From assembly GCA_039698055.1 (NCBI GenBank), contig JBDKTL010000017.1, forward strand, positions 1 through 64,000: a stretch of DNA of 64,000 bases, written 5' to 3'. Positions 11,035-43,190 of this stretch are shown here, in pieces. The stretch is from Methanoregula sp. (lineage in GTDB: Archaea > Halobacteriota > Methanomicrobia > Methanomicrobiales > Methanospirillaceae). The notes below the pieces were generated by a model. That model was not told where the DNA came from, did not search any database, and worked only from the letters and a program-made list of their open reading frames with translations. The position numbers and the translations under genes were made by a program. Position 1 is the stretch's first letter; every line of letters starts with the position of its first letter.

Positions 11035-11350
11035 TGCGAAGTCTGGCATAATGTTGGCAGTTTTTCACGATATTTTTGGTGTTTACCTTTTTTTTATTTG
11101 ACCATCCATGATATTTTTCTCTCACATTTTTAATAATGATTTTTCTCAAATGTAGTGCAATTTCATTTCATACTTCCCCGTAAAAATGCAACTCCTTTTG
11201 GGGGCAACGCGGCTGTTCGTACCATAGGCATGAGTCAGCGTGGCTGGCGATAACCAAAATTTACTATATAAAAATAACAAAAGGCAAAATAATTTTGTTC
11301 CCGGGAACGCTCAAACAATAACAAGAAATCTTTTCCCGGATGATACCGGG

Positions 11351-12484
11351 TCAGATAATTTCGATGATTGCCTGTTTGCGCTGTTCGGCAATCTTTTTTG
11401 TGACGATATACTGGATAATGACCCCGGCAATTGCCGACGCAAGGCCCGATACCGTAGAATACAGAATCTCAGTTCCTGTTGTGGCGGCAGATAACGGGAA
11501 GTCAGGAATCCCGCTCACGGACAGGATATAGACGCTTGCGCCGTACAGGATAAGTCCGATCGCGACGACAAAGAAGGGAAATACAATGACTTTCCTTAAG
11601 TTGTCCCACTCGTTGATATAAACATCAATGATGATGCCGACCGAAGTAACCAGTCCTGCGGTGATCAGCCACCAGATCGCCCCGTAGATGAAGGTCATCA
11701 GGTACGGGACGATACCCATACCTGCATCGGATGAGTAATACCGGAGCACGGTGATGAAACCGCTGGTGAAACCGATGATGACAAGAAGGATAGTCGTGGC
11801 ATAGGTAATAAAGGAAAATCTTCCCCGTGACAAGGATAAACGCAGGGCTGCAATGATACCGTGGACCAGTTCGTCAAACCCGAATCCTTTGTACAACAGG
11901 TACATGCCGATTACCCCGACCACAATGATCGTCGCAGTTCCCGGGTATCCCACAAGGAATGCAGTGGCGTAGAGCAGCATGGCAAGCCCGAGTGGGACTA
12001 ATACGATCCGGGAAATTTTTGGATCGTCAAGGAGTTTTTTCAGGATGTAATAGGTGCCTTCGAGATTGGGCATCTGGTTGACAATCACCCTGCGGATGCT
12101 TGACACCGGAAGCCGGGATTGGATGATGGGGATAACGTATTCGTCTTCGGCACCGTCAGAGACAAGGATACAGTTGTCCGGCCTTGTTTCCTTGATGACC
12201 TGCTCAAGGTGCGTTGCAATACGCCGGTCACCTTCAATCATGTGGAGATGATTTCCCGAAATGACCGAAACGATGGCTTCTTCGCCCTTTGCAATAAGTT
12301 CATCGTAGATTTTGATGGCCTGAAAAATGGCGTTGACATCAGAGTCTTCAGGATCTGCAAGCGCTAATGTTTCTGCTGCTTTCAGGCAGGCTTCCCTGCC
12401 GACGACCGGGCTTTCTACGTGTGCTTTCCAGCCAATATCGTCATCGCGATCAACGCTGAGAACGAGAGTTCTCCCCTGTGTCAT
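11351..12484 (-). CDS. DUF373 family membrane protein
   Basis: LVLSVDRDDDIG, DPEDSDVN, SDGAEDE, multiple TM segments. Confidence 0.88.
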   Translation of the reverse strand: MTQGRTLVLSVDRDDDIGWKAHVESPVVGREACLKAAETLALADPEDSDVNAIFQAIKIYDELIAKGEEAIVSVISGNHLHMIEGDRRIATHLEQVIKETRPDNCILVSDGAEDEYVIPIIQSRLPVSSIRRVIVNQMPNLEGTYYILKKLLDDPKISRIVLVPLGLAMLLYATAFLVGYPGTATIIVVGVIGMYLLYKGFGFDELVHGIIAALRLSLSRGRFSFITYATTILLVIIGFTSGFITVLRYYSSDAGMGIVPYLMTFIYGAIWWLITAGLVTSVGIIIDVYINEWDNLRKVIVFPFFVVAIGLILYGASVYILSVSGIPDFPLSAATTGTEILYSTVSGLASAIAGVIIQYIVTKKIAEQRKQAIIEII

Positions 12485-17208: not shown

Positions 17209-18444
17209 ATGGTGGAGTCGCAGGAGATCGAGCTGCAGGGTCATATTATTGATTCCGGCATTATGACCCAGCTTTTCGATAAAGTCATGGATATGGGTGG
17301 AAATTTTGAAATCCTCGTCTTTGATATCGGCAAGAAAAAGACGGACCCCAGTTATGCCCGACTCCGGATTGTTGCGTCCAGCAAAGAAAAAATGCGTGCA
17401 ATTCTTTCCGAACTCCACCGGATCGGAGCCCGCCCGCTCGAAGTAAAAGATGTTCATCTCGAACCGGCATTGGGGGATCGCAATATTCCCAAGCGGTTTT
17501 ACACGACCACGAACCACCCGACCAAAGTCAAATATGGTGAAGACTGGATCCCGGTCGAACCGACAAAGATGGACTTTTTGATCGTTGTGGATCCAAAAAA
17601 CAAGACTGCACGGTGCACCGCCCCGGCGAAGATAAAAAAGGGCGATCTGGTCGTTGTCGGCGAACAGGGTGTGAATGTCGCGTATCCGGAACGCCCACGG
17701 ATGAGCAGTACGTTCGAGTTTATGCACGGCACGGTTTCTTCGGAACGCCCCAGCGAGACCCTGATTGCCCAGATCGCAGCAGAGATCCTCGAAGTCCACA
17801 AAAAGGGCGGGAAGATTGCCCTTGTCGGCGGTCCTGCAATCATCCATACCGGGGCAGACAAAGCGCTTGCAGAAATGATCCGCAAAGGATACATCGATGT
17901 TCTTTTTGCCGGCAATGCGCTCGCCACGCACGATATTGAATACAACCTGTACGGCACATCGCTTGGCATGGACATATCGACGGGAAAACCGGTGATGGGG
18001 GGCCACCGCCACCATCTCTATGCAATCAGCGAGATCATGCGGGCCGGTTCGATAAAAAATGCCGTTGACAAGGGCGTGATAACCGGTGGGATCATGTACG
18101 AATGCGTGAAAAACAATGTGCCGTTTGTCCTGGCCGGTTCAATACGGGACGACGGTCCCCTTCCCGATGTGATCACAGACGCGATGGAAGCCCAGGAGGC
18201 GATGCGCAGGCATATTGACGGGTGCAGCATGGTGCTCATGATTGCAACCCTCCTGCACTCTGTCGCTGTCGGCAATTTCCTCCCCTCCAACGTAAAGACG
18301 ATCTGCGTTGATATCAACCCCGCCTCCTTAACAAAACTCATGGACCGGGGAACAATGCAGGCGCTCGGCGTCGTTTCCGATGCAGGTACCTTCATGCCGA
18401 TGCTTGCCCGGCAACTGGAAATCCAGAGCACGGCAAAAAAGTAA
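17209..18444 (+). CDS. TIGR00300 family (LOR/SDH-like, ornithine cyclodeaminase-type) protein
   Basis: GHIIDSG, FYTTTNHPT, FEFM..VSSE, GNALATHDIE, LAGSIRDDGPLP, KLMDRG. Confidence 0.88.
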   Translation: MVESQEIELQGHIIDSGIMTQLFDKVMDMGGNFEILVFDIGKKKTDPSYARLRIVASSKEKMRAILSELHRIGARPLEVKDVHLEPALGDRNIPKRFYTTTNHPTKVKYGEDWIPVEPTKMDFLIVVDPKNKTARCTAPAKIKKGDLVVVGEQGVNVAYPERPRMSSTFEFMHGTVSSERPSETLIAQIAAEILEVHKKGGKIALVGGPAIIHTGADKALAEMIRKGYIDVLFAGNALATHDIEYNLYGTSLGMDISTGKPVMGGHRHHLYAISEIMRAGSIKNAVDKGVITGGIMYECVKNNVPFVLAGSIRDDGPLPDVITDAMEAQEAMRRHIDGCSMVLMIATLLHSVAVGNFLPSNVKTICVDINPASLTKLMDRGTMQALGVVSDAGTFMPMLARQLEIQSTAKK

Positions 18445-30885: not shown

Positions 30886-31026
30886 TTTCCCCCTCTTTTA
30901 TGGAATAATTATTTTTTTAATACCGGTAAATCCGGGGAATTTATTTTTCCGTACGTGCGATTTCACGCCCATGGTCTTGTTCCATAACCTATTTATGACG
31001 AGGGGTAAAATTAGTTAAAGCAACGC

Positions 31027-31101
31027 GCTGCTATAGTGTAGTCCGGCCAATCATGCGGGCCTTTCACGCCCGCGACTGGGGTTCGAATCCCCATAGCAGC
31101 A
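31027..31101 (+). tRNA. tRNA-Glu(UUC), integration target
   Basis: Acceptor stem GCTGCTA/TAGCAGC, anticodon loop CTTTCAC, GGGGTTCGAATCCCC. Confidence 0.96.
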
Positions 31102-31167
31102 TCTTCTTTTCAGACCAGAATCCCCAAGGGTTTTCCAACGCATTCTCCCAGCGTCAGCTTAATCCAT

Positions 31168-32412
31168 ATGCACACGGATTTCGCCGGTGCAATGAGAAAA
31201 GGGATTGATCCTGCACCGACCAGCCGAGACCGGGCTTTCCACTGTCAGAAAGCGGAGTATGCAGATCATTCTATCGACAATGCCATAGCGACAGATCGCC
31301 TCACACCGGAAGATGCCCAATTGATCAGGGCATTCATCTCGGAACTGAAAGCTACCAAGGGGATCAGCACCGGAAGGGCGAACAAAATCATTTTCACGCT
31401 CATTACGTGGAGACGATTTCTTCCGCCCTACACGACAAACAGCATTACCGACATCTACCAGGGCATCAACAACATGAAAGATACGAGAGTTCAGGGCCGG
31501 CCCTACAAGCAGAACACCCAGAGGGATTTCCTGAACTTCATCAAACGCTTTTACCTCTGGATGATCAAGCACCGGTATTCCCCGCTTATGAAGGACGATA
31601 TACGGGAGATCAAAGTGCCCCGTACAGACACAATGACTAAAACCGCTGAGATGATGCTGAGCGAAGATGAAGTCCATAAAATGATCGATGCGTGTATGAA
31701 CTCACGTGACCGGGCACTTATCGCAATGCTGTATGAGGGCGGCTTTCGTATCGAAGAGATTGGGACATTGACATGGGGCCAGATCAAAATCGATGATTAT
31801 GGCATGATCATCAATACCAACAAGAAAACCGAAAAGCCCCGGTACGTCCGGCTCGTAGCTGCTACACCCTATTTCGCAACGTGGCGGAACGATTACCCAT
31901 ATGCCATCGCTGCCGAGGGGTTGGTCTTCACGTCCCATAAACGCCTGCCGTTGCGTTACGAGGGGATCGCACTTCAGTTGAAAAAGATTGGAGCGCGCGC
32001 CGGTGTTAAGAAGCGGATCACGCCGCATTTATTCCGGCATTCAAAAATCACGTCGATGGTTCAGCAGGGATATAACGAGACGATTATCAAAAAAATGATG
32101 TGGGGAAACATCCGGACGGGGATGTTCGAGACGTACTGCCATCTGACAGATACTGATGTTGACGATGAAGTCCTTTCCAAGCAGGGCATCAGGAGAAAGA
32201 ACGAGAAGAAGCAGCGGGCTATGGAGGCTCGCCAGTGTCCTCACTGTTCGACCGTGAATGCCCCAACCGATGAATACTGCCGCACCTGTGCCAAACCCCT
32301 TACTGCGGAAATTGACCTGTCAATGGAAGAGATCAAACGAGAGATTGAGAAGACCCCGGAATTCGCAAAAATTATGGAAATAATCCGGCACAATATTTCA
32401 GTTGCCGGATGA
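31168..32412 (+). CDS. tyrosine recombinase/integrase with C-terminal Zn ribbon
   Basis: GGFR..E, HLFRH, WG, TY.H catalytic set; CPHC..CRTC; frame stays open upstream into attL. Confidence 0.95.
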   Translation: MHTDFAGAMRKGIDPAPTSRDRAFHCQKAEYADHSIDNAIATDRLTPEDAQLIRAFISELKATKGISTGRANKIIFTLITWRRFLPPYTTNSITDIYQGINNMKDTRVQGRPYKQNTQRDFLNFIKRFYLWMIKHRYSPLMKDDIREIKVPRTDTMTKTAEMMLSEDEVHKMIDACMNSRDRALIAMLYEGGFRIEEIGTLTWGQIKIDDYGMIINTNKKTEKPRYVRLVAATPYFATWRNDYPYAIAAEGLVFTSHKRLPLRYEGIALQLKKIGARAGVKKRITPHLFRHSKITSMVQQGYNETIIKKMMWGNIRTGMFETYCHLTDTDVDDEVLSKQGIRRKNEKKQRAMEARQCPHCSTVNAPTDEYCRTCAKPLTAEIDLSMEEIKREIEKTPEFAKIMEIIRHNISVAG

Positions 32413-33222
32413 ATTTTCTTTTTTTATATAGCGTTTTAATAGGGCATGGAGTTTATCCGGTTGAGTCCGGGTTGTTGTACCCATCCCCATAATAGAATCC
32501 AGAATCCGGTTGTTTTCAGTCGTCTCGTTTCCCATCATCATAAAGAGAAACATCCGAAGATCCCTTGATACAACTCCGTTCGGTTTGGTTTCCATCCAAT
32601 CCTGAAATAAACAAAATCTGAACACTTCTAAAAGACGGTTATACGTACTTACTGCCTTGTCGGAATCGGGAGTAAGAGATAATCTTCGACACACCCATTG
32701 GATATTACTTGATGGAGTATCCCACGAATAGAGCGTATCTTGGGTAACAGGGTTCAGGATGCAGAATTTGAAGAACGTGGGGGAGGCTTGTAACAGAAGG
32801 TGCAGGAGTTCCTTATTCTTCTCCTCACCTGCGAGAATCCGCTCATCAATAATCAGTTCACGGAGCCATGCACTTTCCCGGAATTTTGGGCGGAGTTCCT
32901 TGTAATAATCCATACCATAGCATACCGTTCCAAGGTGATCAAAATCCCGGAATAATCGATAGCCGGTTCCTTTTCGCCACCGTGATCCTTCCGGACGATA
33001 ATCCTCAATCGCCTCGATAACTCCCTCTTCCACGAGCGTATCCAGCTGCCTGCTGACATACCGGTACTTGTTATCGGTTGTCCCGCTAAAACCGCAATAG
33101 TCGGCAATCCCGCCGGTGTTTGCCACATCATTATCAAGCAAACACGCGACAATCAACTTCTTGATATCTCTTCTTGGTTCCTTGCCCTTTGTATTTTCAC
33201 TCATATGCTCACGTCTCTCCAT
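32398..33222 (-). CDS. putative winged-helix regulator
   Basis: N-terminal IADYCG..VSRQLDTLVEEGVIE...GYRL pattern; converges on the integrase. Confidence 0.65.
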   Translation of the reverse strand: MERREHMSENTKGKEPRRDIKKLIVACLLDNDVANTGGIADYCGFSGTTDNKYRYVSRQLDTLVEEGVIEAIEDYRPEGSRWRKGTGYRLFRDFDHLGTVCYGMDYYKELRPKFRESAWLRELIIDERILAGEEKNKELLHLLLQASPTFFKFCILNPVTQDTLYSWDTPSSNIQWVCRRLSLTPDSDKAVSTYNRLLEVFRFCLFQDWMETKPNGVVSRDLRMFLFMMMGNETTENNRILDSIMGMGTTTRTQPDKLHALLKRYIKKENSSGN

Positions 33223-33456
33223 TACTCCACAATATGGATAAACCTTGTGTAGTAATAGAAAAATTAACTTACGCCGGAGATCTTCGAAAGGATCGCCCTA
33301 AAATTATTGCAAATTGTGATCCAATGAAGGGTCGATACAGCCATTTCTCAGAAAAAATTGCGATCTAAATAATCCGCATATCAGACTCAAAATGGGAAAA
33401 TATGCCCTAAATGAGCCTTATTTGGGATAAGGGTTAATGGGTAATTGTTGAGTCAC

Positions 33457-33609
33457 ATGCCAAAAATTACTCTGAAACAATTACAGCATCTGCCTGAACT
33501 CCATCGGCTCGTCTGCGAACAGTTGATCTGGAAGGGATCATGGCAACTGGTCTTGGACGCCGATGAAAAAGCATCCGATCTTGATGCAATCCCCATCTCA
33601 ACGAGGTGA
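33457..33609 (+). CDS. small hypothetical protein (50 aa, not in ORF track)
   Basis: MPKITLKQLQHLPELHRLVCEQLIWKGSWQLVLDADEK...; its stop overlaps the GAGGTGA RBS of the next gene. Confidence 0.5.
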   Translation: MPKITLKQLQHLPELHRLVCEQLIWKGSWQLVLDADEKASDLDAIPISTR

Positions 33610-33613
33610 ACCG

Positions 33614-33991
33614 ATGGGAACAGGATTGCGCGGGTACGGATGGTACAAGTGGGACTTGCTGAAGGAGGTCTACTATGCGTTTGAAACTGCGGAATTTACC
33701 TACGCAGCAGCGGCCAAGCTTCCCGGGTTCGACAGAAAGACGTACATGTCTCTGTATTACGACGGGTTGATCACCAAAAAAGTCCAGGGGCGGCCGTCCA
33801 AATGGAAACTGAGCGAGGCTGCCATCAGATCAATTATCGGGTACAACCTGCCCGAGGACGTGGAGTGCGAACCGGAGATCAAACTCTCCGTCCCTCGCCG
33901 CTCCAAACGCGCTATACTACATGCCGAAGCATTTGTCGAACAGATCCTCGAAGCCGTTGAGTTTTTTTCAAAGCCGGAGGTGATATCATGA
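33614..33991 (+). CDS. hypothetical protein, wHTH-like
   Basis: RBS GAGGTGA before ATG 33614; LYYDGLITKK..GRPSKWKLS wing-like motif. Confidence 0.65.
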   Translation: MGTGLRGYGWYKWDLLKEVYYAFETAEFTYAAAAKLPGFDRKTYMSLYYDGLITKKVQGRPSKWKLSEAAIRSIIGYNLPEDVECEPEIKLSVPRRSKRAILHAEAFVEQILEAVEFFSKPEVIS

Positions 33992-34053
33992 AATGAGTGG
34001 CCAATTGACGATACGTTGGATCGACATATGACAAGCGCGTAAAGGTGGTAATT

Positions 34054-34476
34054 ATGGAAGACAGCAAAAACAAACTAAAACTACAAGTCAACGATCTCGT
34101 TCTAATGAACGTCGTTGGCGTGGGAGAGGACGGGCCAATCTTTGGAGTCGTTGACCGGGTAGGTACAATGGAACTCCTTGATGAGGAGGCCGTTAAGTCT
34201 CCGATACTGGAGAATCCAAGCGAACAGGCAACGGAGAACATCCCGGAGGTTGAAATGCCGGGAAACGAGGGGATTTCTGACGTGAATGCCTCGGTAATTG
34301 CAGAACTGGAAGCCCGGCGGGCTGCTCTGGATGCTGCGATTCAGGAGTTGAAGAAGGAGGGCGTTGCATATCTTGATCCCACCCCAATTCAAGCCGAAGC
34401 TACAACACCACAGTTAGCTACCGAGCGAGGGGATGATAATCCTAAAAATGCAATGGTTCGCAGGATACAAGGATAA
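34054..34476 (+). CDS. acidic hypothetical protein
   Basis: AGGTGG RBS; short coiled coil IAELEARRAALDAAIQELK. Confidence 0.6.
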   Translation: MEDSKNKLKLQVNDLVLMNVVGVGEDGPIFGVVDRVGTMELLDEEAVKSPILENPSEQATENIPEVEMPGNEGISDVNASVIAELEARRAALDAAIQELKKEGVAYLDPTPIQAEATTPQLATERGDDNPKNAMVRRIQG

Positions 34477-34628
34477 TGGGAATGGGCAACAATCAAAACA
34501 TATTTTTGGATTATATGATAATAGAGAGAGTTTCTTAATCTCTCGCTGTATGTTTATTGCTTATAGTCTTTATATATTTGTCCAATTTAATTCATAACAA
34601 TTATCATTCGCTGGCCCAATTCAGGATT

Positions 34629-35222
34629 ATGTTCTGCTACAAATGCGGGGCCGAAAATAAAAACGATGCGACTTTTTGCAGTAAGTGTGGCACGGCCATA
34701 GGTACATCAGGTTCTTTGCCATCACCGCAGACAAACCACGAACCACTTGAAAAATACAGATTACCTGAGATATCTGACGCGATTTTTGACTCCCTCACCC
34801 AGGAACAACAGAGATCATATAACCGTAAAGTTCTGGCAAAGAGCGAATACAACCTAGCGAAGGAGAATTATGATACATCAATGAGTCTGGTTGGACCACT
34901 CATTTGTATTATCTGTGGTTTGCTCCTTGCCATTCTCGAAATATACTTAAGTATACTCGTTATAATTGGAATCATCTGGGCGTTCTACCGTGTTGCATCG
35001 CGATCTCAGGCATACCAACGGTTGAAGGACACTGAAGCAGAACTCAAGGCCGCGATTGATGCCGATGCTTCTCAAGCAAGGATGATTTCGCAGACTCCAA
35101 GTGTACCCTGTACATTCGATAAGGATTTCTGGAAGAACATTACAGTCATCATTATTGTACTAGCTGCGCTCTTCACCATTGTATTTCTAATGATGCTCTA
35201 CGCACAGGGAAAATTATCCTGA
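34629..35222 (+). CDS. zinc-ribbon membrane protein
   Basis: MFCYKCG..FCSKCG; three hydrophobic segments. Confidence 0.8.
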   Translation: MFCYKCGAENKNDATFCSKCGTAIGTSGSLPSPQTNHEPLEKYRLPEISDAIFDSLTQEQQRSYNRKVLAKSEYNLAKENYDTSMSLVGPLICIICGLLLAILEIYLSILVIIGIIWAFYRVASRSQAYQRLKDTEAELKAAIDADASQARMISQTPSVPCTFDKDFWKNITVIIIVLAALFTIVFLMMLYAQGKLS

Positions 35223-35437
35223 TGGTTGAGGTTCACGCGTCCCGATTCATCAGTCCCCTTGGCTATACCAAAGAGACTGAGATCATTAGAATAACCACAG
35301 TAATGTTTGTAGGACAAAAACTACATATTTCCACTAATGATCAATATTCTTTCATTAGACAATAGTTTGCAATGACACGAGACATTTTTTTATATTTATG
35401 AAGAGAATAGAGAAACAATTGATTCCCGAGGGATTTT

Positions 35438-35968
35438 TTGTCTTACGATACCTTGTCATTTTTTTCTGCATCGTTGTCTTGCGGCGACTCAACATTTTCA
35501 ATTATACTCAACGCTCTTGTTACCTTATTGGGTGCTGCTATTGGCGCGATAATCACGGTATATTTAACAGACCATATCACAAAAAGATCTGAAACGAAAA
35601 CCAGAAATCAAGTTGCTCATAGTCTGCTATTGAAGGTCAAGTCAATAGATGAGAGGTTAAGACATATCCCAACGATTATATCGCTGAATAATTTTAATAC
35701 AGAAAATCCATTTTTTACACGTGTCGAAACAGTTCTTCCAAATATGTCTCTACTAGATTTAGAGACAATATCTCTTTTGAATCGTCTTGAACGCGAGCTT
35801 TTCGTTTTAGAAGAGTTCCGTCAAAAAGTTGTTAATAAAGAATATTATAATAACCATCTCAACGATTTAAATCACGATCTTACTTTTTCTATGATCAATC
35901 ATGTTACGAAAGCAAAACAGTATGTGATTGAACTTATTTCTAAATTGATGGAAATTACAATGAACTGA
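35438..35968 (+). CDS. hypothetical protein with N-terminal TM helix
   Basis: AT-rich ORF, TM LVTLLGAAIGAIITVYL; start uncertain. Confidence 0.6.
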   Translation: MSYDTLSFFSASLSCGDSTFSIILNALVTLLGAAIGAIITVYLTDHITKRSETKTRNQVAHSLLLKVKSIDERLRHIPTIISLNNFNTENPFFTRVETVLPNMSLLDLETISLLNRLERELFVLEEFRQKVVNKEYYNNHLNDLNHDLTFSMINHVTKAKQYVIELISKLMEITMN

Positions 35969-35977
35969 AATTATTAC

Positions 35978-36300
35978 GGCTATGTAGAAATGCTAAGTTT
36001 ACTGACGTAAACCAGTGACCATAAGTTCTAAGGTACAGTGCCTCCTTCCATTGTTATGCAACACGACATAAGGAGACAAAATAATGTCAGCAAACTGGTA
36101 TATGAGGTTTGTTGAATTATCCTCTTGACTGATCCTTGATTCACGGATTCCCCTGTTCTCGTCGAAGTTTTCGAGAAAAACATATACCCATCACAAGTTA
36201 CTCATTCTTCTTCTTTTGAAAGAGTACTTGTCAGAGGATTACCGTGACGCTGCAGAACTCACAGAGATCATGGACTCACTCCGGGAGAAGATCCATTCTT
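35978..36300 (+). pseudogene. IS5-family left end with truncated transposase pseudogene
   Basis: TIR-like GGCTATGTAGAAAT at 35978; ATG 36084 reads MSANWYMRFVELSS*LILDSRIPLFSSKFSRKTYTHHKLLILLLLKEYLSEDYRD; internal TGA at 36126; breaks at a poly-T near 36300. Confidence 0.8.
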
Positions 36301-36435
36301 TTTTTTTTAAAGAAATTCAAATTAAAAGTTGGCAAACTATGTCTTTTTACACTCTTGTTAGTGGGAGCGCATTAATTGATTTTTTATATAACACACTGTT
36401 GACTGTGAAAAATATTAAAATATAGAATAGACTTA

Positions 36436-37581
36436 TTACAAAAGTGCCGTTGACCTGCTTAAGTGAACCTGAGCATTATTCAGGTCCGTTATTCCAGAAT
36501 AACTGAGGCTTGTACTACCGTCATGATCTCCAGCATTGTATTTGTCCACAGATAGGACGACTTTATCTGCCGCACTTCGCACGTCATTGAGATATAATAT
36601 GTATTCTTGTGCGGCTGCTTTTTTTGTTCCTGCTCCATTGGTCAATTGCTTCATTTCTGGGAGGTTTTGGTCAATATAATTCCGCAATAATACTGCATTA
36701 AGACCTGCTTTTAGGTAATCTCCATTCGTTAAAGAATCTCCAATAATTCTCACAGTTGGGGACATCCAAGTATTCATCTCAGACATTTTATCAAGTGCGG
36801 CCTTCTCCCCACTAATGGTGGTTATCGTAGTTGGCTTTGGATTGGACTCTATCACCGTTGAAGCTGCCGCCATATCATCCTGATATGGATAGTATAGGAA
36901 TGTTGGGAAATCATCAGTAAAAATCGTATTTTTCTCCGGTATGTATGTGTAATTATAATGCCCCCCGTTAAGTTCAGTGGTTATATACGAATTACCTCCT
37001 TGTGCATGCCAAGTCCCATAACCTTCCCATGTCCCTTTATCAGGAGTGTGCATAATCCAAGATTGTGTCCCATTCGCATCAAACCGAACCTTCACATCAG
37101 TACCTGAGGCAGAAGCCAACCATGTACCAATTATCGGGTCAGTTTTTACTGGGATATATGTCGGTTCTGGCGTGGGTGTGGGAATAACACGTTCATCTAT
37201 GAAATGTACTTTATAAGAAGTATCATCAATAATTGTTGCCATTGCGACAACATCGAATGTTTTGGCGTCATTAGGTATGAAAAATTTTACCGCACCACTC
37301 TGTCCTTTTGTTATATAGGGTGTCCTTAACGTTTGTGTAGAGACTTTGACATTATTTTTATCATAGAAATCAACCATAACCGCAAACTGACCCTCTACAG
37401 ACGAAAGATCCTTAACCGTAACTTTAAGGATTGATCCTGAAATCTCCGTGTCTGTTAAAGCCAGTGATGGTGTTGTATCTTCAGTCGATAGACTAGTAGA
37501 TGATGAATTATCGCTGCAACCAGCTACGAAGACAATTAATATTAAAGAAATGCTTAAAACTGCGATATTTTGGATTTTCAT
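36436..37581 (-). CDS. predicted lipoprotein, multi-domain
   Basis: Lipobox FVAGC, S/T linker, DPIIGTW lipocalin-like segment, helical C-terminus. Confidence 0.75.
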   Translation of the reverse strand: MKIQNIAVLSISLILIVFVAGCSDNSSSTSLSTEDTTPSLALTDTEISGSILKVTVKDLSSVEGQFAVMVDFYDKNNVKVSTQTLRTPYITKGQSGAVKFFIPNDAKTFDVVAMATIIDDTSYKVHFIDERVIPTPTPEPTYIPVKTDPIIGTWLASASGTDVKVRFDANGTQSWIMHTPDKGTWEGYGTWHAQGGNSYITTELNGGHYNYTYIPEKNTIFTDDFPTFLYYPYQDDMAAASTVIESNPKPTTITTISGEKAALDKMSEMNTWMSPTVRIIGDSLTNGDYLKAGLNAVLLRNYIDQNLPEMKQLTNGAGTKKAAAQEYILYLNDVRSAADKVVLSVDKYNAGDHDGSTSLSYSGITDLNNAQVHLSRSTALL

Positions 37582-37803
37582 TAACAGCCACCCCAATAGT
37601 TCTATTTGAGAAAAAGACTTATATTACGATTAATATTGTGTTTTTGTATGAGCAATATTTCTTGTAATTGGAAACGCTCTTGTTTTTGGCGTTTAACCGG
37701 AAATTAATGCCGCCGATAGGTACATTTCGGGTCGGGGGCAGTTCCCCGGGGGTGGTGAGGGCATTGATTCCACTACTAGTGAAATAACAATTTAAAAACT
37801 AAT

Positions 37804-38565
37804 TTAATCCAAATCAGTTACTGCAATCCAAGTACAGCGGCATCCTTCATGGGCTTCTGCATCTATTTTTGCAGCTTCCTCAAGAGTGAAAATTTTTCCG
37901 TCTAATGCTGCACACTTATCACAGGTCTTCTCATCACGAGCCACCAAACGTTCCAATTTTTTAATCCCAGTTTTTTTGTACCGATCTCTTGCCTCTGAAT
38001 TAATAGACTTCATCGTTATCGTGTTAATTAATGATCTCGCACGTTCGAGGTTCACACCATCGACTTGTTCGACAATCTCATGACTAATTTGGCCCAGATT
38101 TTTTTCGAACCGGATGCCATCGGCAACAATTTTTTTTACTTTTTTTTCGGATTCAATAGACAGTCCTTTTAGTTGGTTTGAATTGCCTTCAATTTGATTC
38201 GCAAGTTTCTCAGAGAGTTGTTGTTTTACTTCCGGAGTGGCCCCTAATCTGATACTGCCATGAGAATTTCCATTTTTTACAAACCATTGTCTCTCTAATT
38301 CGTCCATCTGGTCCTCTTTTATCAAAACTTTCCTATTATCAAGGGGCCGTGTTTTACTTCGGATAAAATTATGGCAGTTTGGACATTGTTTCTTTTTTAA
38401 GGGCATTTTATCAAATTTAAAATCACAATACGGGCATATTGGTTCAGTATTACCAATCGCGGTAAATTCAATGTCGGAGATCTTTTTTGGGTTATTCCGA
38501 GTATCTTGAGATCCATCAGTATTTTGTTCAGTTGTAATTCCCCGAAACCAATTTAAAATGCCCAT
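37804..38565 (-). CDS. Zn-finger protein with C-terminal MuF/SPP1 gp7-like domain
   Basis: CPYC..CPNC; ERARSL..T, DEKTCDKCAALDGKIF, HEGCRC. Confidence 0.7.
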   Translation of the reverse strand: MGILNWFRGITTEQNTDGSQDTRNNPKKISDIEFTAIGNTEPICPYCDFKFDKMPLKKKQCPNCHNFIRSKTRPLDNRKVLIKEDQMDELERQWFVKNGNSHGSIRLGATPEVKQQLSEKLANQIEGNSNQLKGLSIESEKKVKKIVADGIRFEKNLGQISHEIVEQVDGVNLERARSLINTITMKSINSEARDRYKKTGIKKLERLVARDEKTCDKCAALDGKIFTLEEAAKIDAEAHEGCRCTWIAVTDLD

Positions 38566-38685
38566 AACACACCATTCATTTTCATCTTAAGAACCGAAAT
38601 ATCTGGTTAATCTAACTGCCTTGCTCTTCGATCTTGGCATTCTGTTTATCAACCTGTTTCTGAAGTATAGTATTTTCAATGATAC

Positions 38686-38794
38686 GATAAAATTGGCGAT
38701 CAAGATATGAGAAATAGACCTGACCTAATGAACAGTTGAATACCTATACGATTTTGGTTTTTTATTGACCGTATCTCTCCGTATCTCTCACGTC
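38686..38794. repeat. 109-bp conserved block, copy 1
   Basis: Collinear with 39836-39944, sharing GATAAAATTGGCGAT, ACAGTTGAATA, GACCGTATCTCTCC and TCACGTC. Confidence 0.85.
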
Positions 38795-38926
38795 AGAGTG
38801 ATCACATAAAAATTTCATGCACTTTTACCTGCATTTACTATGGTTCTAAGGAAATCACAAAAAAAATATACGGAGCAATACGGTTTTCTCCATTCCGAGT
38901 ATAGGTTCAGAAAAAAAGCAGATGTC

Positions 38927-39050
38927 AAAAGAGTTAATATGATCGCAAGCTGATGGTAATCTGAGCCTAAGGAGGTTCACATTTATGAAAAATGACCAGA
39001 ATCAGAGGGATTCTGGTTCTGAAAAAAATCGCTCCATAGCAGCATTTTAA
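38927..39050 (+). other. promoter, RBS and N-terminal integrase fragment at attR
   Basis: AAAAGAGTTAATAT 38927-38940, GGAGGT 38971, ATG 38985, MKNDQNQRDSGSEKNRSIAA crossing att in the integrase phase. Confidence 0.65.
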
Positions 39051-39134
39051 CACTGATGGTTCAATGCTCTTTTGTGTGATTGCCTTATCACTTTCATAAG
39101 CAATTGTCTACAACTCACAATGAAACATACTCGC

Positions 39135-39722
39135 TTAACCTGATCTATTTTGTTGATAGCAGTCAACTCTGACAGGTTGTGGAACGGGTATGAATATGGG
39201 TATTGAAAGATCTGTTGAATAATCAAGCACTATTTTCTGGGAGTAGGAATTATTCTCAGCATCACAATATTGAATCTCTACTTCAAGTTTGCCTCTTCGT
39301 CTTTCTATTGAGGTCCATTCCCCACAGACAGAAATTCGTTCATTTGTGCCTAATGTGTATAAGTAAAACGATGATTCCGGAGATCCATCAGAACGAGTTT
39401 TGATAGTAACTCTTGTTGCAACTGGACCATAATTGGATAAATATAAAGTTTTACCTCCTGTACGAGGGTAATCATCACTTTGAACAGATAAAACCGGTTT
39501 AATCGCAGATTTTCTTGTTTCATTATATTGCTTCTCTAACATTTTTAGAGAGTCTTCATTTAGAAGTCTGATTTTTTTGGTTTCAATAAGGTAACCATAT
39601 GTAACTATTACCAACACTACAGTAATGAATACAGAACATCCACTTAATAGGATTTCTTCAATTGGCATACGAATTAAATAATTTTTTAGGGATATAATAT
39701 CTGGTATCATTAGATCTTTCAA
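39135..39722 (-). CDS. hypothetical single-TM protein
   Basis: TM ITVVLVIVTYGYL followed by a coiled segment and a beta-rich domain; start uncertain. Confidence 0.7.
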   Translation of the reverse strand: MKDLMIPDIISLKNYLIRMPIEEILLSGCSVFITVVLVIVTYGYLIETKKIRLLNEDSLKMLEKQYNETRKSAIKPVLSVQSDDYPRTGGKTLYLSNYGPVATRVTIKTRSDGSPESSFYLYTLGTNERISVCGEWTSIERRRGKLEVEIQYCDAENNSYSQKIVLDYSTDLSIPIFIPVPQPVRVDCYQQNRSG

Positions 39723-39835
39723 GAAAAATATGATAGTTCATCAACATATTTTGCTAAAAGATGACTTCTAATATTGCATTTTCCAAAACTCTTTTGTCAC
39801 ATTTCCTTCAAGTGTGAGATCATTGTCAATGGCGG

Positions 39836-39944
39836 GATAAAATTGGCGATTTGGACCTTATAAATAACCGTGATCTAATGGACAGTTGAATATGCGTAAG
39901 ATTTTGATCTGGTATCGACCGTATCTCTCCATATATTTCACGTC
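39836..39944. repeat. 109-bp conserved block, copy 2 (outside attR)
   Basis: Same blocks as 38686-38794, offset 1150 bp. Confidence 0.85.
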
Positions 39945-40247
39945 GTAATCCCGATAAGAAAAAACCATACAATTTTTGTTGACATTAGTCATACTGACAG
40001 TTTGTCCAAATCCACTGCAAAAGTCATCTCTTTTAAATGCATTCATCTTCCACATCCAGTTCATAATCGTGAAACCCCGATATCTGTCGTTAGTCATGGC
40101 CCGGGACAGCCCGGATTATCAGGAATTGCTGACGTGACTGCGAAAGGATTTGAATCTTAAGTTTTTTTTCATATGCGATTAACATTTTTTAATTGAACTA
40201 AAATGCATATATGCTGGAACGAGAGTACATATCTGTAGGGATTTTAT

Positions 40248-40439
40248 ATGGAAAGTGACGTTTTCAAAGAGCTGCGGTTAATCCGGCAGGATCTCAAATA
40301 TATCCGGGCCCATATGGTTGACCAGGATATGATTCTTTCTCCTGAAGATAAAGCGCTTCTTGACAAAAGCCGTCAGGAACTCCATGCGGGGAAAACCCGG
40401 TCTCTCGATGATGTGATGAGAGCACGAAATGGTGCTTGA
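40248..40439 (+). CDS. putative type II antitoxin
   Basis: 63 aa ending LSPED...GKTRSLDDV; overlaps the start of a RelE-like gene. Confidence 0.75.
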   Translation: MESDVFKELRLIRQDLKYIRAHMVDQDMILSPEDKALLDKSRQELHAGKTRSLDDVMRARNGA

Positions 40440-40689
40440 GATTGCCATCGGGCCTAAGGCAGACCGTTTTTTGCTGAGTGTAAACCAACAGATTTTTGAT
40501 CGGCTGATCAAAAAAATCAGGGAACTGGCGGTTAATCCCCAGCCTCGTGGTGCCAAAAAAGTTCTCAGCGAGGAAGGGGTTTTCAGGATATGAGTTGGAA
40601 CGCACCGGATTCTCTATTCACTTGAGGAAAATAAGCACGTTCTTCTTATCGTGAATATCGACAAGCGTTCCCGTGTATACAAAAGATAA
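40429..40689 (+). pseudogene. RelE/ParE family toxin with internal nonsense codon
   Basis: ...LAVNPQPRGAKKV..EGVFRI*VGTHRILY...IDKRSRVY; TGA at 40591-40593. Confidence 0.85.
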
Positions 40690-40944
40690 TCCATATTATT
40701 TATTGCCAAAACGCAAATCATCCGAAATTTGATTATCTCATATCAGATAGGGAAAATACTCTACGATTTATTGGTTCTTTTTTAGAATTACGGGCGGCTG
40801 TTTAAGGACCCGCAAACAGGCCCGTAATCGGCTGTGAGATCGAATAGCGGTAATCCAGTTCCCCGGCAAACACTATCCCCGTCGTAGATTGTGACAACCG
40901 GACGGTCCCTTCGGGCTCGCAGGAACGATTGGATCGCACAAAAG

Positions 40945-41412
40945 GGCGAATTATCGATCGTCATTTCCAGACAACGCCCATTTTGGGGAATCCAGGCGAA
41001 AATACGGCAGATGATTGCCTGAAAAAGAACCCTAACAGACCCTTTTGGACGGCCGATCGCATGCCGGGTTGAAGGTACGTGGAGCACAATGAAAAGAAGG
41101 CCTGTTTTGAGGCAATGTTCCGGGGTCGTCTCGTCGGACACCGACGTGAATTTTATCCGGGTACGCATTGTTCCAGGATCGATCATACCCTCACTGACAG
41201 GTACGATCGTCGATTCCCTGCGGATCAATGCTCCGACGGTGATTCCCGTGCCGTGACGACAACCGGCTGATCGTGGTTCTGAATTTAATGTAAAAAATGG
41301 CGAATTATCTATCGTCATTTCCAGACAACGCCCATTTTGAAGAATTCAAACGAAAATACGGCAGGTAATCGTCCGAAAAAGAACCCTAACAGACCCTTTT
41401 GGACGGCCGATC
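40945..41412. repeat. two 114-bp direct repeats (40945-41058, 41299-41412)
   Basis: 11 mismatches in 114 bp by manual alignment; period 354 bp. Confidence 0.9.
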
Positions 41413-41567
41413 TCAAGGATTAACGGGCTGGAGCAGGGGGAAACCAAAGAAACCCCTGTTTTTATGGTTCGGCTCTATGGCACTCCGGGATCCTGTCCGT
41501 GTTCACCCGATTTTTTTTAAACCAATGTAAGATTTACGAAAAAAAAATAAAAAAAATGTCCCCGGTT

Positions 41568-43190
41568 TTATGGGGATACGGTCGGTGTCGCCGTGACTGT
41601 GGTATTTGTTGCGGGGGGTTCTGTTGTGATGACGGTTGTAGCTTTTGTTGTCGGAACCGGTGTCGGTGTGGGTGTTTTCAGCACCGCTTCGAATTCAATG
41701 CTTCCTTTGGGGACAACAGTTGAATCGCGCTTGATCAGGACGCCGTCCTTGTACAGTTCAATAACAAGTTCATCCCCGGACCCGTCCGTCTTTTTGATGG
41801 ATGCGTCGACCGGCCCGTTCACGGTGGGAATCTGGTAGAAATGTTCACCGGTTTCTGTTACCGGTGTCTGCGCTCCCGGTGTACCGTACGTCCCGGTAAA
41901 TGTCTGCGGGTAACTGATTTTGATCCAGATGCCGGACTGGGGAATAAGCAAGGTCGGTTGCGCCGTCGCCACGGTGGTAGTAATCGTTGCCTGTGTCGGA
42001 TGCGGTGTTGGCGTGGGAATGGTGGTTGCAACGGTTGTGCCGGTCGGAACGATCGTCACATTTGTAGAATCCGGATGTTTCTGCAGAGACTGGGAATAGA
42101 TAACGATACCGCCAATGACCAGGAGAATGACGATGGCAATGCCGATAATCGCCATGCGCCGTGGTTTTCTGGTGGACGGTGGTGACGGAACCGGTGGCAG
42201 GGGGGTTTGTGGCGGGGTTCCGGGTTGTGCAGCCGGTGCTGGTTCCGCCGGCGTTACGGATCCTTCATTTGCGGCGTTTATGATTGACGCAGCTGCCAGT
42301 TCAATCGCAGACGGCGAGATCGTTTCCTGCTGCCCATCAGGAACCGGCGATGTCTCCGGGACTGGCACGAACGGGAGCGGCTCGCGGACCGGCTCCGGTA
42401 CGATAGGCCGGGATCCCGCCCGGGGGACCGAATCTTCAATAAGCGGTTCGATGGAATGGATGATCTGTTCAATGGGACGCTCCTTGCGTTCGAACACCGG
42501 AGCGCTCATCGCCGGAACCGGGTCCCTGATAGTCCCGAGAACCTTTTCCGGCTCGGCGGGTTTTGTGCTTTGTGCCGGAACCCTGGTCCCGCACCGGTTG
42601 CAGAATGTCGATTCCGGAGGAATACGGTTGCCGCACCGTGGACAGAATGACCCTTGTGGCAGGGATGTGGTTTCTATGGGCTGGGGATAGACCGGGCTTT
42701 TCTCAATGATCTTCTTGATGGGCCGGGAAATCTCGATCTTCTTTTTTCCTGAAGTGCTTGCGACACCAATCGATGACGGGGCGGGTGTCCCGTACTTCTG
42801 CGCAGATGCAACTTCCGGTGCCGGCTCTGCCGGTTTTTCTTCTTTTGGCTGCATCAGTGCGATGCGCTCTTTGAGCAGCGCGGCAAAGTCATCGCATTCG
42901 CGTTTTCGCTCCCCGGTCTGGCGCGAGAACGTGAGAATCATCTGACGGGTCTTGCCGGTTTCAGTCCCGATTGAGAGGGTGAGGATTGAATCGCGTATTG
43001 CATTCTCACCGGTTTCGACTTTCTGGATAGTCGCAAGCTGGATATTCTGCTGGGGGATGACATTTTTCTTGTTATCGACAAGAAGCAGCCGCTTGGTTGT
43101 CAGTATTGCGTCAAAGGGAATGGATTTAACTTTGACATTTTTTGTTTCCAGGATGATTGACTCATCACTGTAGAGATCGGTATAGCCCAT
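41568..43190 (-). CDS. membrane protein with N-terminal PH-like domain, zinc ribbon and Pro/Thr-rich linkers
   Basis: AILTTKRLL, FCPRCG..FCNRCG, one TM segment. Confidence 0.8.
   Translation of the reverse strand: MGYTDLYSDESIILETKNVKVKSIPFDAILTTKRLLLVDNKKNVIPQQNIQLATIQKVETGENAIRDSILTLSIGTETGKTRQMILTFSRQTGERKRECDDFAALLKERIALMQPKEEKPAEPAPEVASAQKYGTPAPSSIGVASTSGKKKIEISRPIKKIIEKSPVYPQPIETTSLPQGSFCPRCGNRIPPESTFCNRCGTRVPAQSTKPAEPEKVLGTIRDPVPAMSAPVFERKERPIEQIIHSIEPLIEDSVPRAGSRPIVPEPVREPLPFVPVPETSPVPDGQQETISPSAIELAAASIINAANEGSVTPAEPAPAAQPGTPPQTPLPPVPSPPSTRKPRRMAIIGIAIVILLVIGGIVIYSQSLQKHPDSTNVTIVPTGTTVATTIPTPTPHPTQATITTTVATAQPTLLIPQSGIWIKISYPQTFTGTYGTPGAQTPVTETGEHFYQIPTVNGPVDASIKKTDGSGDELVIELYKDGVLIKRDSTVVPKGSIEFEAVLKTPTPTPVPTTKATTVITTEPPATNTTVTATPTVSP

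Follow-up and report, generated by a model that had tools for sequence, protein, structure and literature searches.

Evidence for an integrase reading frame that spans the attachment site of an element at tRNA-Glu in a Methanoregula-like methanogen

The element and its integrase gene

The DNA analysed here (the window) is the first 64,000 nt of Methanoregula sp. contig JBDKTL010000017.1; it holds a 7.9-kb integrative element (31102-39045) that sits in the 3′ end of a tRNA-Glu gene of a Methanoregula-like methanogen and carries a tyrosine integrase gene whose frame is open to the tRNA end. The target, tRNA-Glu(UUC) (31027-31101, plus strand, called by ARAGORN), contributes the left part of the attachment (att) site attB together with the core. 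At attL this core, CCATAGCAGCAT, is 12 bp long and comprises the last 11 nt of the tRNA plus 1 (31091-31102, plus strand); a second 12-bp copy of CCATAGCAGCAT forms the attR core (39034-39045, plus strand). Beyond lies the chromosomal flank (B′, 39046-39085, plus strand), and the right boundary of the element is supported by the similarity of the sequence after 39045 to the native flank downstream of tRNA-Glu in the related genome G344. The 12-bp core is not among the 20 largest repeat families reported for the window. Below, W denotes the window locus, L-numbers related loci, G-numbers related genomes and X-numbers sequencing runs.

The integrase body is a 414-codon open reading frame (ORF) from its first ATG (31168-32412, plus strand), within which the ATG at 31192 is the start conserved in close relatives. 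Between core and body runs a linker (31102-31167, plus strand) in the integrase frame, with no stop and no ATG, GTG or TTG. These 66 nt after the attL core have no recognisable promoter box, and the internal ATGs have poor ribosome sites (GGTG 2 nt before 31192, none before 31168). The attL side holds every one of the motifs GGFRIEE (residue 191), HLFRH (287), MWGN (311) and ETYCH (321), together with a zinc ribbon at the C-terminus (357-374). PF00589 is the sole recombinase-domain match above its own cut-off (E 2.6e-23; 83.1 bits against a gathering cut-off of 27.1; residues 164-328) and places the protein in the tyrosine recombinase superfamily. In an alignment of 54 sequences K255, H322, W347 and Y358 never vary, and conservation reaches at least 90% at R229 and R325 (first-row numbering); the catalytic roles of the R, HxxR, W/H and Y residues we take to be those usual in the family. 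The tetrad is of the HxxR form (HLFRH), not KxxR, and PF16795 has no match at E ≤ 10 in either the window ORF or a natural long ORF at locus L054 (described below). Searches of solved structures place XerA and XerD nearest, with no SSV integrase at E ≤ 1. The protein is not a Xer resolvase, since its scores fall far below the NCBIfam equivalog cut-offs (NF040815 XerA, 106 bits against 220; XerC, 79 against 335; XerD, 77 against 330).

The attR arm carries what appears to be the 5′ end of this gene. A B recognition element (BRE)/TATA-like box, AAAAGAGTTAATAT (38927-38940, plus strand), lies, as read from the sequence, 45 nt upstream of an ATG at 38985, and a Shine-Dalgarno-like GGAGGT (38971-38976, plus strand) stands 8 nt before that ATG. 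The putative detached 5′ end (38985-39050, plus strand) consists of the ATG, 16 further codons and the core codons; in the integrated state it is a 21-codon ORF that reads MKNDQNQRDSGSEKNRSIAAF, made of 17 codons, ATA-GCA-GCA, one more codon and a TAA at 39048-39050. At attL the same ATA-GCA-GCA (31093-31101) stands in the integrase phase and no stop intervenes before ATG 31168 or ATG 31192. Joining the two ends gives 456 codons (17 + 439). A first-pass annotation of the window had proposed just such a gene, split by its own att site, and its anatomy holds up: the core, AAAAGAGTTAATAT, GGAGGT, ATG 38985 and TAA 39048-39050 are where it placed them, the arm frame passes through the core in the integrase phase to give its 456-codon sum, the attL frame is open as it described, and the location of the motifs in the window ORF bears out its statement that the catalytic motifs and both in-frame ATGs (31168 and 31192) remain at attL.

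Short repeats cluster around both cores. The 64 kb hold three copies of the 9-mer ACCAGAATC, against 0.59 expected, at 31114 (plus strand), 38995 (plus) and 39009 (minus), and every copy adjoins a core: one lies 11 nt to the right of the attL core, and a palindromic pair lies 16 nt to the left of the attR core. The attL copy belongs to an integrase-proximal arm motif, ACCAGAATCCC (31114-31124, plus strand), which resembles a tRNA T-arm and is a putative integrase-binding site. The pair forms the palindrome ACCAGAATC-AGAGG-GATTCTGGT (38995-39017) within the detached codons, its right half being the integrase-proximal motif inverted. A T-arm-like motif (GGTTnnAATCCC or similar) was present 8-12 nt past the tRNA end in all 15 loci inspected, whichever the tRNA, and reads as a second, imperfect T-arm copy directly behind the acceptor end, in a version specific to the lineage. 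The attR arm of W also stands beside the same core in L005 and L006/L054, whose integrases are 91-92% identical to that of W. Folded as RNA, 38962-39050 reaches -24.3 kcal/mol (z -3.0 against shuffles, with 1 of 200 shuffles as good); one of its hairpins pairs part of GGAGG with upstream bases, and a 10-bp hairpin forms from the palindrome after the ATG.

Reading frame and start signals in related lineages

The integrase family is tRNA-linked, multi-copy and patchy: of 401 genomes sampled from the order, 182 gave a match at E ≤ 1e-60. Its homologues are named after Methanoregula, Methanofollis, Methanoculleus and other Methanomicrobiales. Gene callers and databases carry only forms of about 405-415 amino acids, started at an internal ATG or GTG. 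Translation across the core requires that the spacer from the tRNA end to the conserved APTxxDRxFH motif be open and in phase, which is what we compared. At loci with a ATAGCAGCA core (window and metagenome), nine of nine integrase genes are in the ATA-GCA-GCA phase and stop-free from the core to APTxxDRxFH. These integrases are 51-92% identical, their spacers vary in length and are almost unalignable, and several have no ATG before the motif, where gene callers chose GTG.

Not every member of the family is of this kind. Of the 27 with an ARAGORN tRNA call (the other 25 loci had none), 16 keep the frame open as far as the tRNA, and a stop interrupts the other 11. In these 'stop' members the tRNA is followed after about 52 nt by the stop and after 62-63 nt by an ATG, and four to six residues of the protein precede the motif. 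Both kinds coexist in the genome of the window, which holds three further family copies, 39-46% identical: those behind tRNA-Leu(CAA) (G000:C30:75801-77097) and tRNA-Gln(UUG) (C16:21857-23136) have a stop that separates their own ATG from the tRNA and are of the unsplit type, and the third, behind tRNA-Thr(CGU) (C38:23694-25186), is a pseudogene: two stops interrupt it, and 18 bp of the tRNA end recur 9.9 kb away. In a tree of 66 integrases (quick maximum-likelihood, midpoint rooted for drawing only), one branch side with a Shimodaira-Hasegawa-like approximate likelihood ratio test (SH-aLRT) value of 81 holds 19 rows, and all 14 tRNA-linked rows there are open; L007 and L024 are not in the tree and count only in the ATAGCAGCA-core, 27-member and 12-lineage sets.

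The 12-lineage set takes one locus per lineage, all from the open branch side, and counts stops in each frame over the spacer that separates the tRNA from the closest start codon ahead of the motif. None of the 12 has a stop in the integrase frame, whereas the two control frames are stop-free in 8 of 24 cases (4 of 24 in a version with a longer spacer); because the lineages are related an exact probability would be overstated, but the contrast is still large.

Eight attR arms could be paired with their own integrase, and in five of them an ATG stands at a fixed distance and in phase with the integrase; these five represent four independent lineages and three tRNAs (Glu, Arg and Leu). The ATG stands 16 codons before the core codon in W (tRNA-Glu, integrase identity to W 100%, 12-bp core), L054a (tRNA-Glu, 91% and W's own lineage, 13 bp), L055 (tRNA-Glu, 58%, 13 bp) and L069 (tRNA-Arg, 45%, 20 bp), and 14 codons before it in L104 (tRNA-Leu, 44%, 13 bp). 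Four of the five have a ribosome site 6-9 nt upstream of the ATG (GGAGGT in W, L054 and L069; GGAGGA in L104), the sequence in L055 being GGGGT, and in each of the five an A-rich stretch followed by a T-rich one forms a box 39-45 nt upstream of the ATG (distances counted by eye). The detached peptides are short, hydrophilic and only loosely alike. Within their codons in W, L055, L069 and L104 the 9-11-nt integrase-arm motif recurs inverted, co-varying by lineage; such a pair looks like protein-binding sites flanking the core, putatively for the integrase. At L062 and L117 (G032:C1:880200-920199), the tRNA-Glu acceptor end CCATGGCAGCA creates an in-phase ATG within the core itself, and in this lineage the core, derived from the tRNA, may provide the start codon; the arm L062x has a stop two codons before that core.

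Further attR ends were sought as direct repeats of at least 11 nt, or as an inverted arm motif plus core, for tRNA-Thr, tRNA-Glu(CUC), tRNA-Arg (L061), tRNA-Asn, tRNA-Asp and other lineages; none appeared within 40 kb downstream, and these lineages contribute attL data only. Scanning 228 family genomes for the pattern DCCATAGCAGCA gave about as many matches as a reversed control. The scan yielded 31 sites in 30 loci, one of which has an ATG at -51 (L098, the same arm as L055); the remainder being chance matches or ends of other elements, we do not use it as a test. Four hybrid junctions with a non-family left arm (L005:5434, L010, L073 and L099) showed no in-phase ATG, and they are excluded from the eight because they are not paired ends.

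What the first-pass annotation had noticed at one locus recurs in homologues: the frame is open and in phase across att in all 12 lineages, and the ribosome site and ATG stand in phase on the attR arm in four lineages (five of the eight paired arms). This recurrence across related lineages shows that the layout of arm ATG and frame is not due to chance. Together with the clustering of the 9-mer, the arm shared among loci and the flank in G344, it raises the case well above that of the raw repeat, and we read the att sites of the element as real.

Tandem copies, cargo and flanking DNA

Elements of this family pile up in tandem at tRNA-Glu, as seen at L005, L054 (G243:C4:97600-117599) and L055/L026 (G244:C1). 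The junction between tandem copies is attP-like and completes the downstream integrase as an ATG-started ORF. At L054:6269-7618, in a Methanoregula metagenome-assembled genome (MAG), the arm ATG of the first element runs stop-free into the integrase of the second, giving 449 codons; this second integrase is 53% identical to that of W, and its database entry is only a 408-residue call from a GTG. At L026/L055 the arm of the 58%-identity element likewise completes a 95%-identity copy of the W integrase. L005 also holds a degenerate copy of the attR arm (about 11320-11448) in which the ATG is kept and the ribosome site and core are mutated. A 490-residue call on a 9.3-kb ENA contig (P0007) reads through a core-like 'GIPIAAS' from a left side that is not a tRNA.

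DNA contigs from the sequencing runs break in the tRNA and extend from 31074 past 39300, reflecting the integrated form and strain variation at the tRNA. One X2 contig tracks the tRNA and core to 31112 and then diverges into different sequence that starts with a similar T-arm-like motif; another strain thus carries a different element at the same tRNA.

Both strands of the cargo (32398-38565) carry ORFs, few of which match a family. Among them are a zinc-ribbon protein of 221 amino acids (34557-35222, plus strand), whose N-terminus shares a zinc ribbon (DUF7577 / Zn_Ribbon_1) with the integrase C-terminus (32236-32290, plus strand), and a protein of 253 amino acids with a Mu-F-like minor head domain (37804-38565, minus strand; PF04233, E 8.5e-10, and several PHROG head families). 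No other recognisable virion gene accompanies the latter in the 8-kb element, and an ESM Atlas search with a 386-residue cargo ORF gave no usable lead. The guanine-cytosine (GC) content drops to 0.34-0.41 from about 34.4 kb, and low values extend to about 40.2 kb, being 0.32-0.37 to the right of attR up to that point.

The chromosome becomes alignable again near 42421 in most genomes of the genus (about 41548 in G327). This leaves 2.5-3.4 kb between attR and alignable chromosome (39046-42420), where less occupied relatives have only 1.1-2.4 kb after tRNA-Glu. About 170 nt from near 39790 are homologous to 38640-38800, just inside the right end of the element, and a repeat finder pairs 38672-38826 with 39822-39976 at 71%. 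We read this as the probable remnant of an earlier, related insertion. Because low GC continues to about 40.2 kb, another attR was suspected near there, but the homology of about 170 nt is all that was found, and no core follows it.

Interpretation and comparison with known systems

The anatomy of the locus and the conservation of its layout across lineages are plain to see, and they strongly support an integrase reading frame that spans attP, with a promoter-like box, ribosome site and first codons on the attR arm. That the long 456-codon ORF is the selected and expressed form we consider likely. At a circle or tandem junction, one arm would supply the promoter box, Shine-Dalgarno sequence, ATG and 16 codons, the core three codons, and the other arm a 22-codon linker and the whole catalytic protein, all in one 456-codon ORF. 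In the circle, the promoter about 45 nt upstream and the strong ribosome site would drive this long integrase; integration at the tRNA would shift promoter, ribosome site and start 7.9 kb from the body, which would then follow the tRNA immediately, lacking an evident promoter and left with only the weak internal starts (ATG 31168 and ATG 31192). With the expression signals moved 7.9 kb away, integrase would be plentiful from the circle and poor or shorter from the integrated copy, and we infer such a fall in expression after integration. Residual expression might arise by tRNA read-through past a T4 run (31107-31110), yielding a shorter protein that would equal the entire sister-lineage enzyme and could account for excision. 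Tandem insertion would rebuild the complete gene, the arm of one element completing the integrase of its neighbour. The first-pass annotation had suggested a switch between a long isoform from the circle and a short or silent one when integrated, fed by tRNA read-through and controlling directionality; on these sequences that is plausible, the internal start kept in all 12 lineages examined and used by sister lineages speaking for it, and we place the full reading, switch and directionality together, slightly below an even chance. The layout itself we read as an independently arisen variant of att-inside-integrase, in which mainly the expression signals and a probably disordered tail are detached.

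A number of observations weigh against this reading or weaken the raw observation taken by itself. The tRNA region (31020-31135, 116 nt) also matches an unrelated site of the window, at 18034, over 12 nt, so the 12-mer repeat alone is weak evidence, and the integrase frame is already open inside the tRNA, back to 31042, which makes 22 stop-free codons unremarkable taken alone. Three of the eight paired attR arms (L065, L062x and L121) lack an arm ATG; L121 has an integrase of the 'stop' kind, as expected, and L065 lacks the ATG despite an open attL frame, its group having a conserved ATG just before the motif. All 12 lineages retain a start codon (ATG or GTG) 4-9 codons ahead of AP(T), and in sister lineages of the 'stop' kind the protein begins at that internal position, so the extension may be dispensable. 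In an AlphaFold model of the L054 ORF (mean predicted local distance difference test (pLDDT) 85.5, predicted template modelling score (pTM) 0.77), residues 1-44, the whole extension, fall below a pLDDT of 50. The model was built with 53 homologues and has no alignment depth over residues 1-44; because those homologues are annotated without that part, the low value is partly built in and is weak evidence, and we take the detached N-terminal tail to be probably disordered.

Data on free and expressed forms add to these objections. No circle joint (39033 to 31103), empty site or transcript 5′ end was found in nine runs, which are stored as assembled contigs and so are uninformative on rare forms. 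The assembled copy is integrated, yet RNA-library contigs of the same study match the integrase body and cargo at 100%, which shows presence in RNA libraries and could reflect transcription without the attR promoter, circles or DNA carry-over; those contigs (X3 and X6) cover 31293-32516 and cargo, and their missing cover of 31102-31292 and 38768-39048 is no evidence either way. An integrase scan of IMG/VR gave no free form, and the arm 37-mer is absent there too; a scan of genome contigs for the arm returned a Methanoregula MAG contig as its sole match. A collection of 5.8 billion proteins holds none with the long N-terminal extension, only the short call from the same contig.

One alternative is a classical integrase, complete at attL in the manner of pNOB8 or lambda and started at ATG 31192 or 31168, for which the attR ORF and the frame match would be by-products of constraints on the DNA, namely integrase-binding palindromes and T-arm-like motifs that chance to lack stops. 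The internal start kept in 12 of 12 lineages and used by the 'stop'-type sisters, the modelled disorder of the extension and the forms of about 405-415 residues in databases all fit that account, as does the similarity among arm peptides (W/Q-N ... D/N-S), which largely coincides with the palindrome. DNA motifs, however, leave unexplained why linkers of varied length and sequence are always in phase and open (12 of 12, against 8 of 24 for other frames), and why a ribosome site and ATG stand a fixed 14 or 16 codons before the core, in phase, in four lineages and at three tRNAs; we judge the classical account unlikely. The attR promoter and start could instead serve a small peptide, or act outward on host DNA, with the fusion to the integrase incidental. 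The integrated state does yield a 21-codon ORF reading out of the element, and the better-than-shuffled fold of the 5′ region (z = -3.0) is a possible regulatory RNA feature. Yet where any such peptide ends depends on the flank after the core: in W and L098 it stops after one to several codons, whereas in L054 and L055 it continues into an integrase. Conservation of phase with the integrase is unexpected for an independent peptide, so that we regard this role as highly improbable.

The element might also be a decaying relic, a fixed and immobile island in which the arrangement is merely inherited. No circle was seen in the contig-level runs, little cargo is present and most of it has no known function, nearby DNA and relatives hold degenerate arm copies and remnants, and one paralogue in the genome is a pseudogene. 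Against decay stand an intact ORF, perfect 12-bp cores, three perfect copies of the arm 9-mer, RNA-library contigs that match integrase and cargo at 100%, and integrases 76-95% identical at tRNA-Glu genes (UUC or CUC) in other genomes of the genus, with differing cargo where compared; a relic is, in our judgement, very unlikely. An integrase frame that crosses attP, with its expression signals on the attR arm, remains the reading we prefer.

If the switch reading is true, the circle would yield much integrase and the integrated copy little, and tandem arrays would restore it. Simple constructs could test what the layout is worth, how active the long and short forms are and what tandem insertion does. 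Split and unsplit relatives coexist, even in this one genome, and a family with both split and self-contained members could show the origin or loss of such a design. In practical terms, integrase 5′ ends and element borders are currently misannotated, since gene callers start at an internal ATG or GTG and so miss both.

Recombination acting as a switch through a gene crossed by attP has a parallel among bacterial viruses. In mycobacteriophage BPs such a gene reportedly gives different products in the integrated and free states; the split gene is said to be the repressor, which loses its C-terminal end, and the host is bacterial. The present case would share the principle and differs in that the gene is the integrase, not the repressor. 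For BPs and its relatives the outcome is described as integration-dependent immunity (PMC4557955, in its account of these phages). Closer in gene identity is intP/intX of Mx8, where attP also lies inside int and integration alters the product without destroying the gene; that system belongs to a bacterial phage and swaps the 3′ end and C-terminus (PMC6070905, as far as its description of the locus goes), whereas here it is the 5′ end and the expression signals that change.

With the pNOB8, SNJ2 and lambda types the W integrase shares PF00589, a target at the 3′ end of a tRNA and a catalytic part left whole, and with SNJ2 also a short identity segment (13 bp for SNJ2, according to the figures given in PMC8371274). 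The body and all domains are intact and internal starts are present at attL. Unlike the classical type, in which int does not contain att and retains its start and promoter (PMC5861418, in its outline of the types), the conserved start, ribosome site and promoter-like box are here on the other arm. In our literature searches on archaeal and Methanomicrobiales integrases, which had supplementary family tables outside their scope, this arrangement is not described in Methanomicrobiales.

The first-pass annotation had likened the gene to SSV1/pTN3-type integrases; the analogy of topology, attP inside int, stands, and the kinship of family does not (no PF16795, an HxxR tetrad, XerA and XerD nearest). 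Self-disrupting integrases are presented in the relevant sections of PMC8371274 as confined to archaea, in the SSV, pTN3 and pT26-2 families, with PF16795 and att sites of about 40-50 bp; the same sections derive these 'suicidal' integrases, mostly of hyperthermophiles, from a single event in one superfamily, and PMC5861418 gives their tetrad as R..KxxR..Y. As in SSV1/SSV2, pTN3 and pT26-2, attP appears to lie inside the integrase ORF, integration at the tRNA parts an N-terminal piece from the catalytic part, and tandem or incoming copies can supply the complete gene (PMC8371274, PMC5861418, for those systems); the frame, its openness and the in-phase arm ATG in four lineages all point to an att site inside the ORF. 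Set against the SSV type as those papers characterise it, the W integrase lacks PF16795, has HxxR where they have KxxR, and is structurally nearest XerA/XerD; its family has cores of 12-20 bp and not 40-50 bp, detaches only 14-17 codons plus expression signals, and inhabits mesophilic Methanomicrobiales. The retained part, moreover, equals the full length of sister-lineage integrases, which suggests that the attL side could be active on its own.

The locus and its relatives thus put an unrelated, mesophilic family beside the suicidal integrases, with their topology in minimal form. PMC8371274 lists among its open questions how elements with suicidal integrases exit the chromosome again and what sets the direction of archaeal integrases in the absence of known helper factors. 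A second, independent origin of att-inside-int in this XerA/XerD-like family, widespread in Methanomicrobiales, in which recombination leaves the enzyme uncut but swaps its promoter, ribosome site and start codon and so controls directionality without a recombination directionality factor, is a possibility we hold tentatively, with belief resting just short of the midpoint; if true, it would stand against the single event stated there for suicidal integrases.

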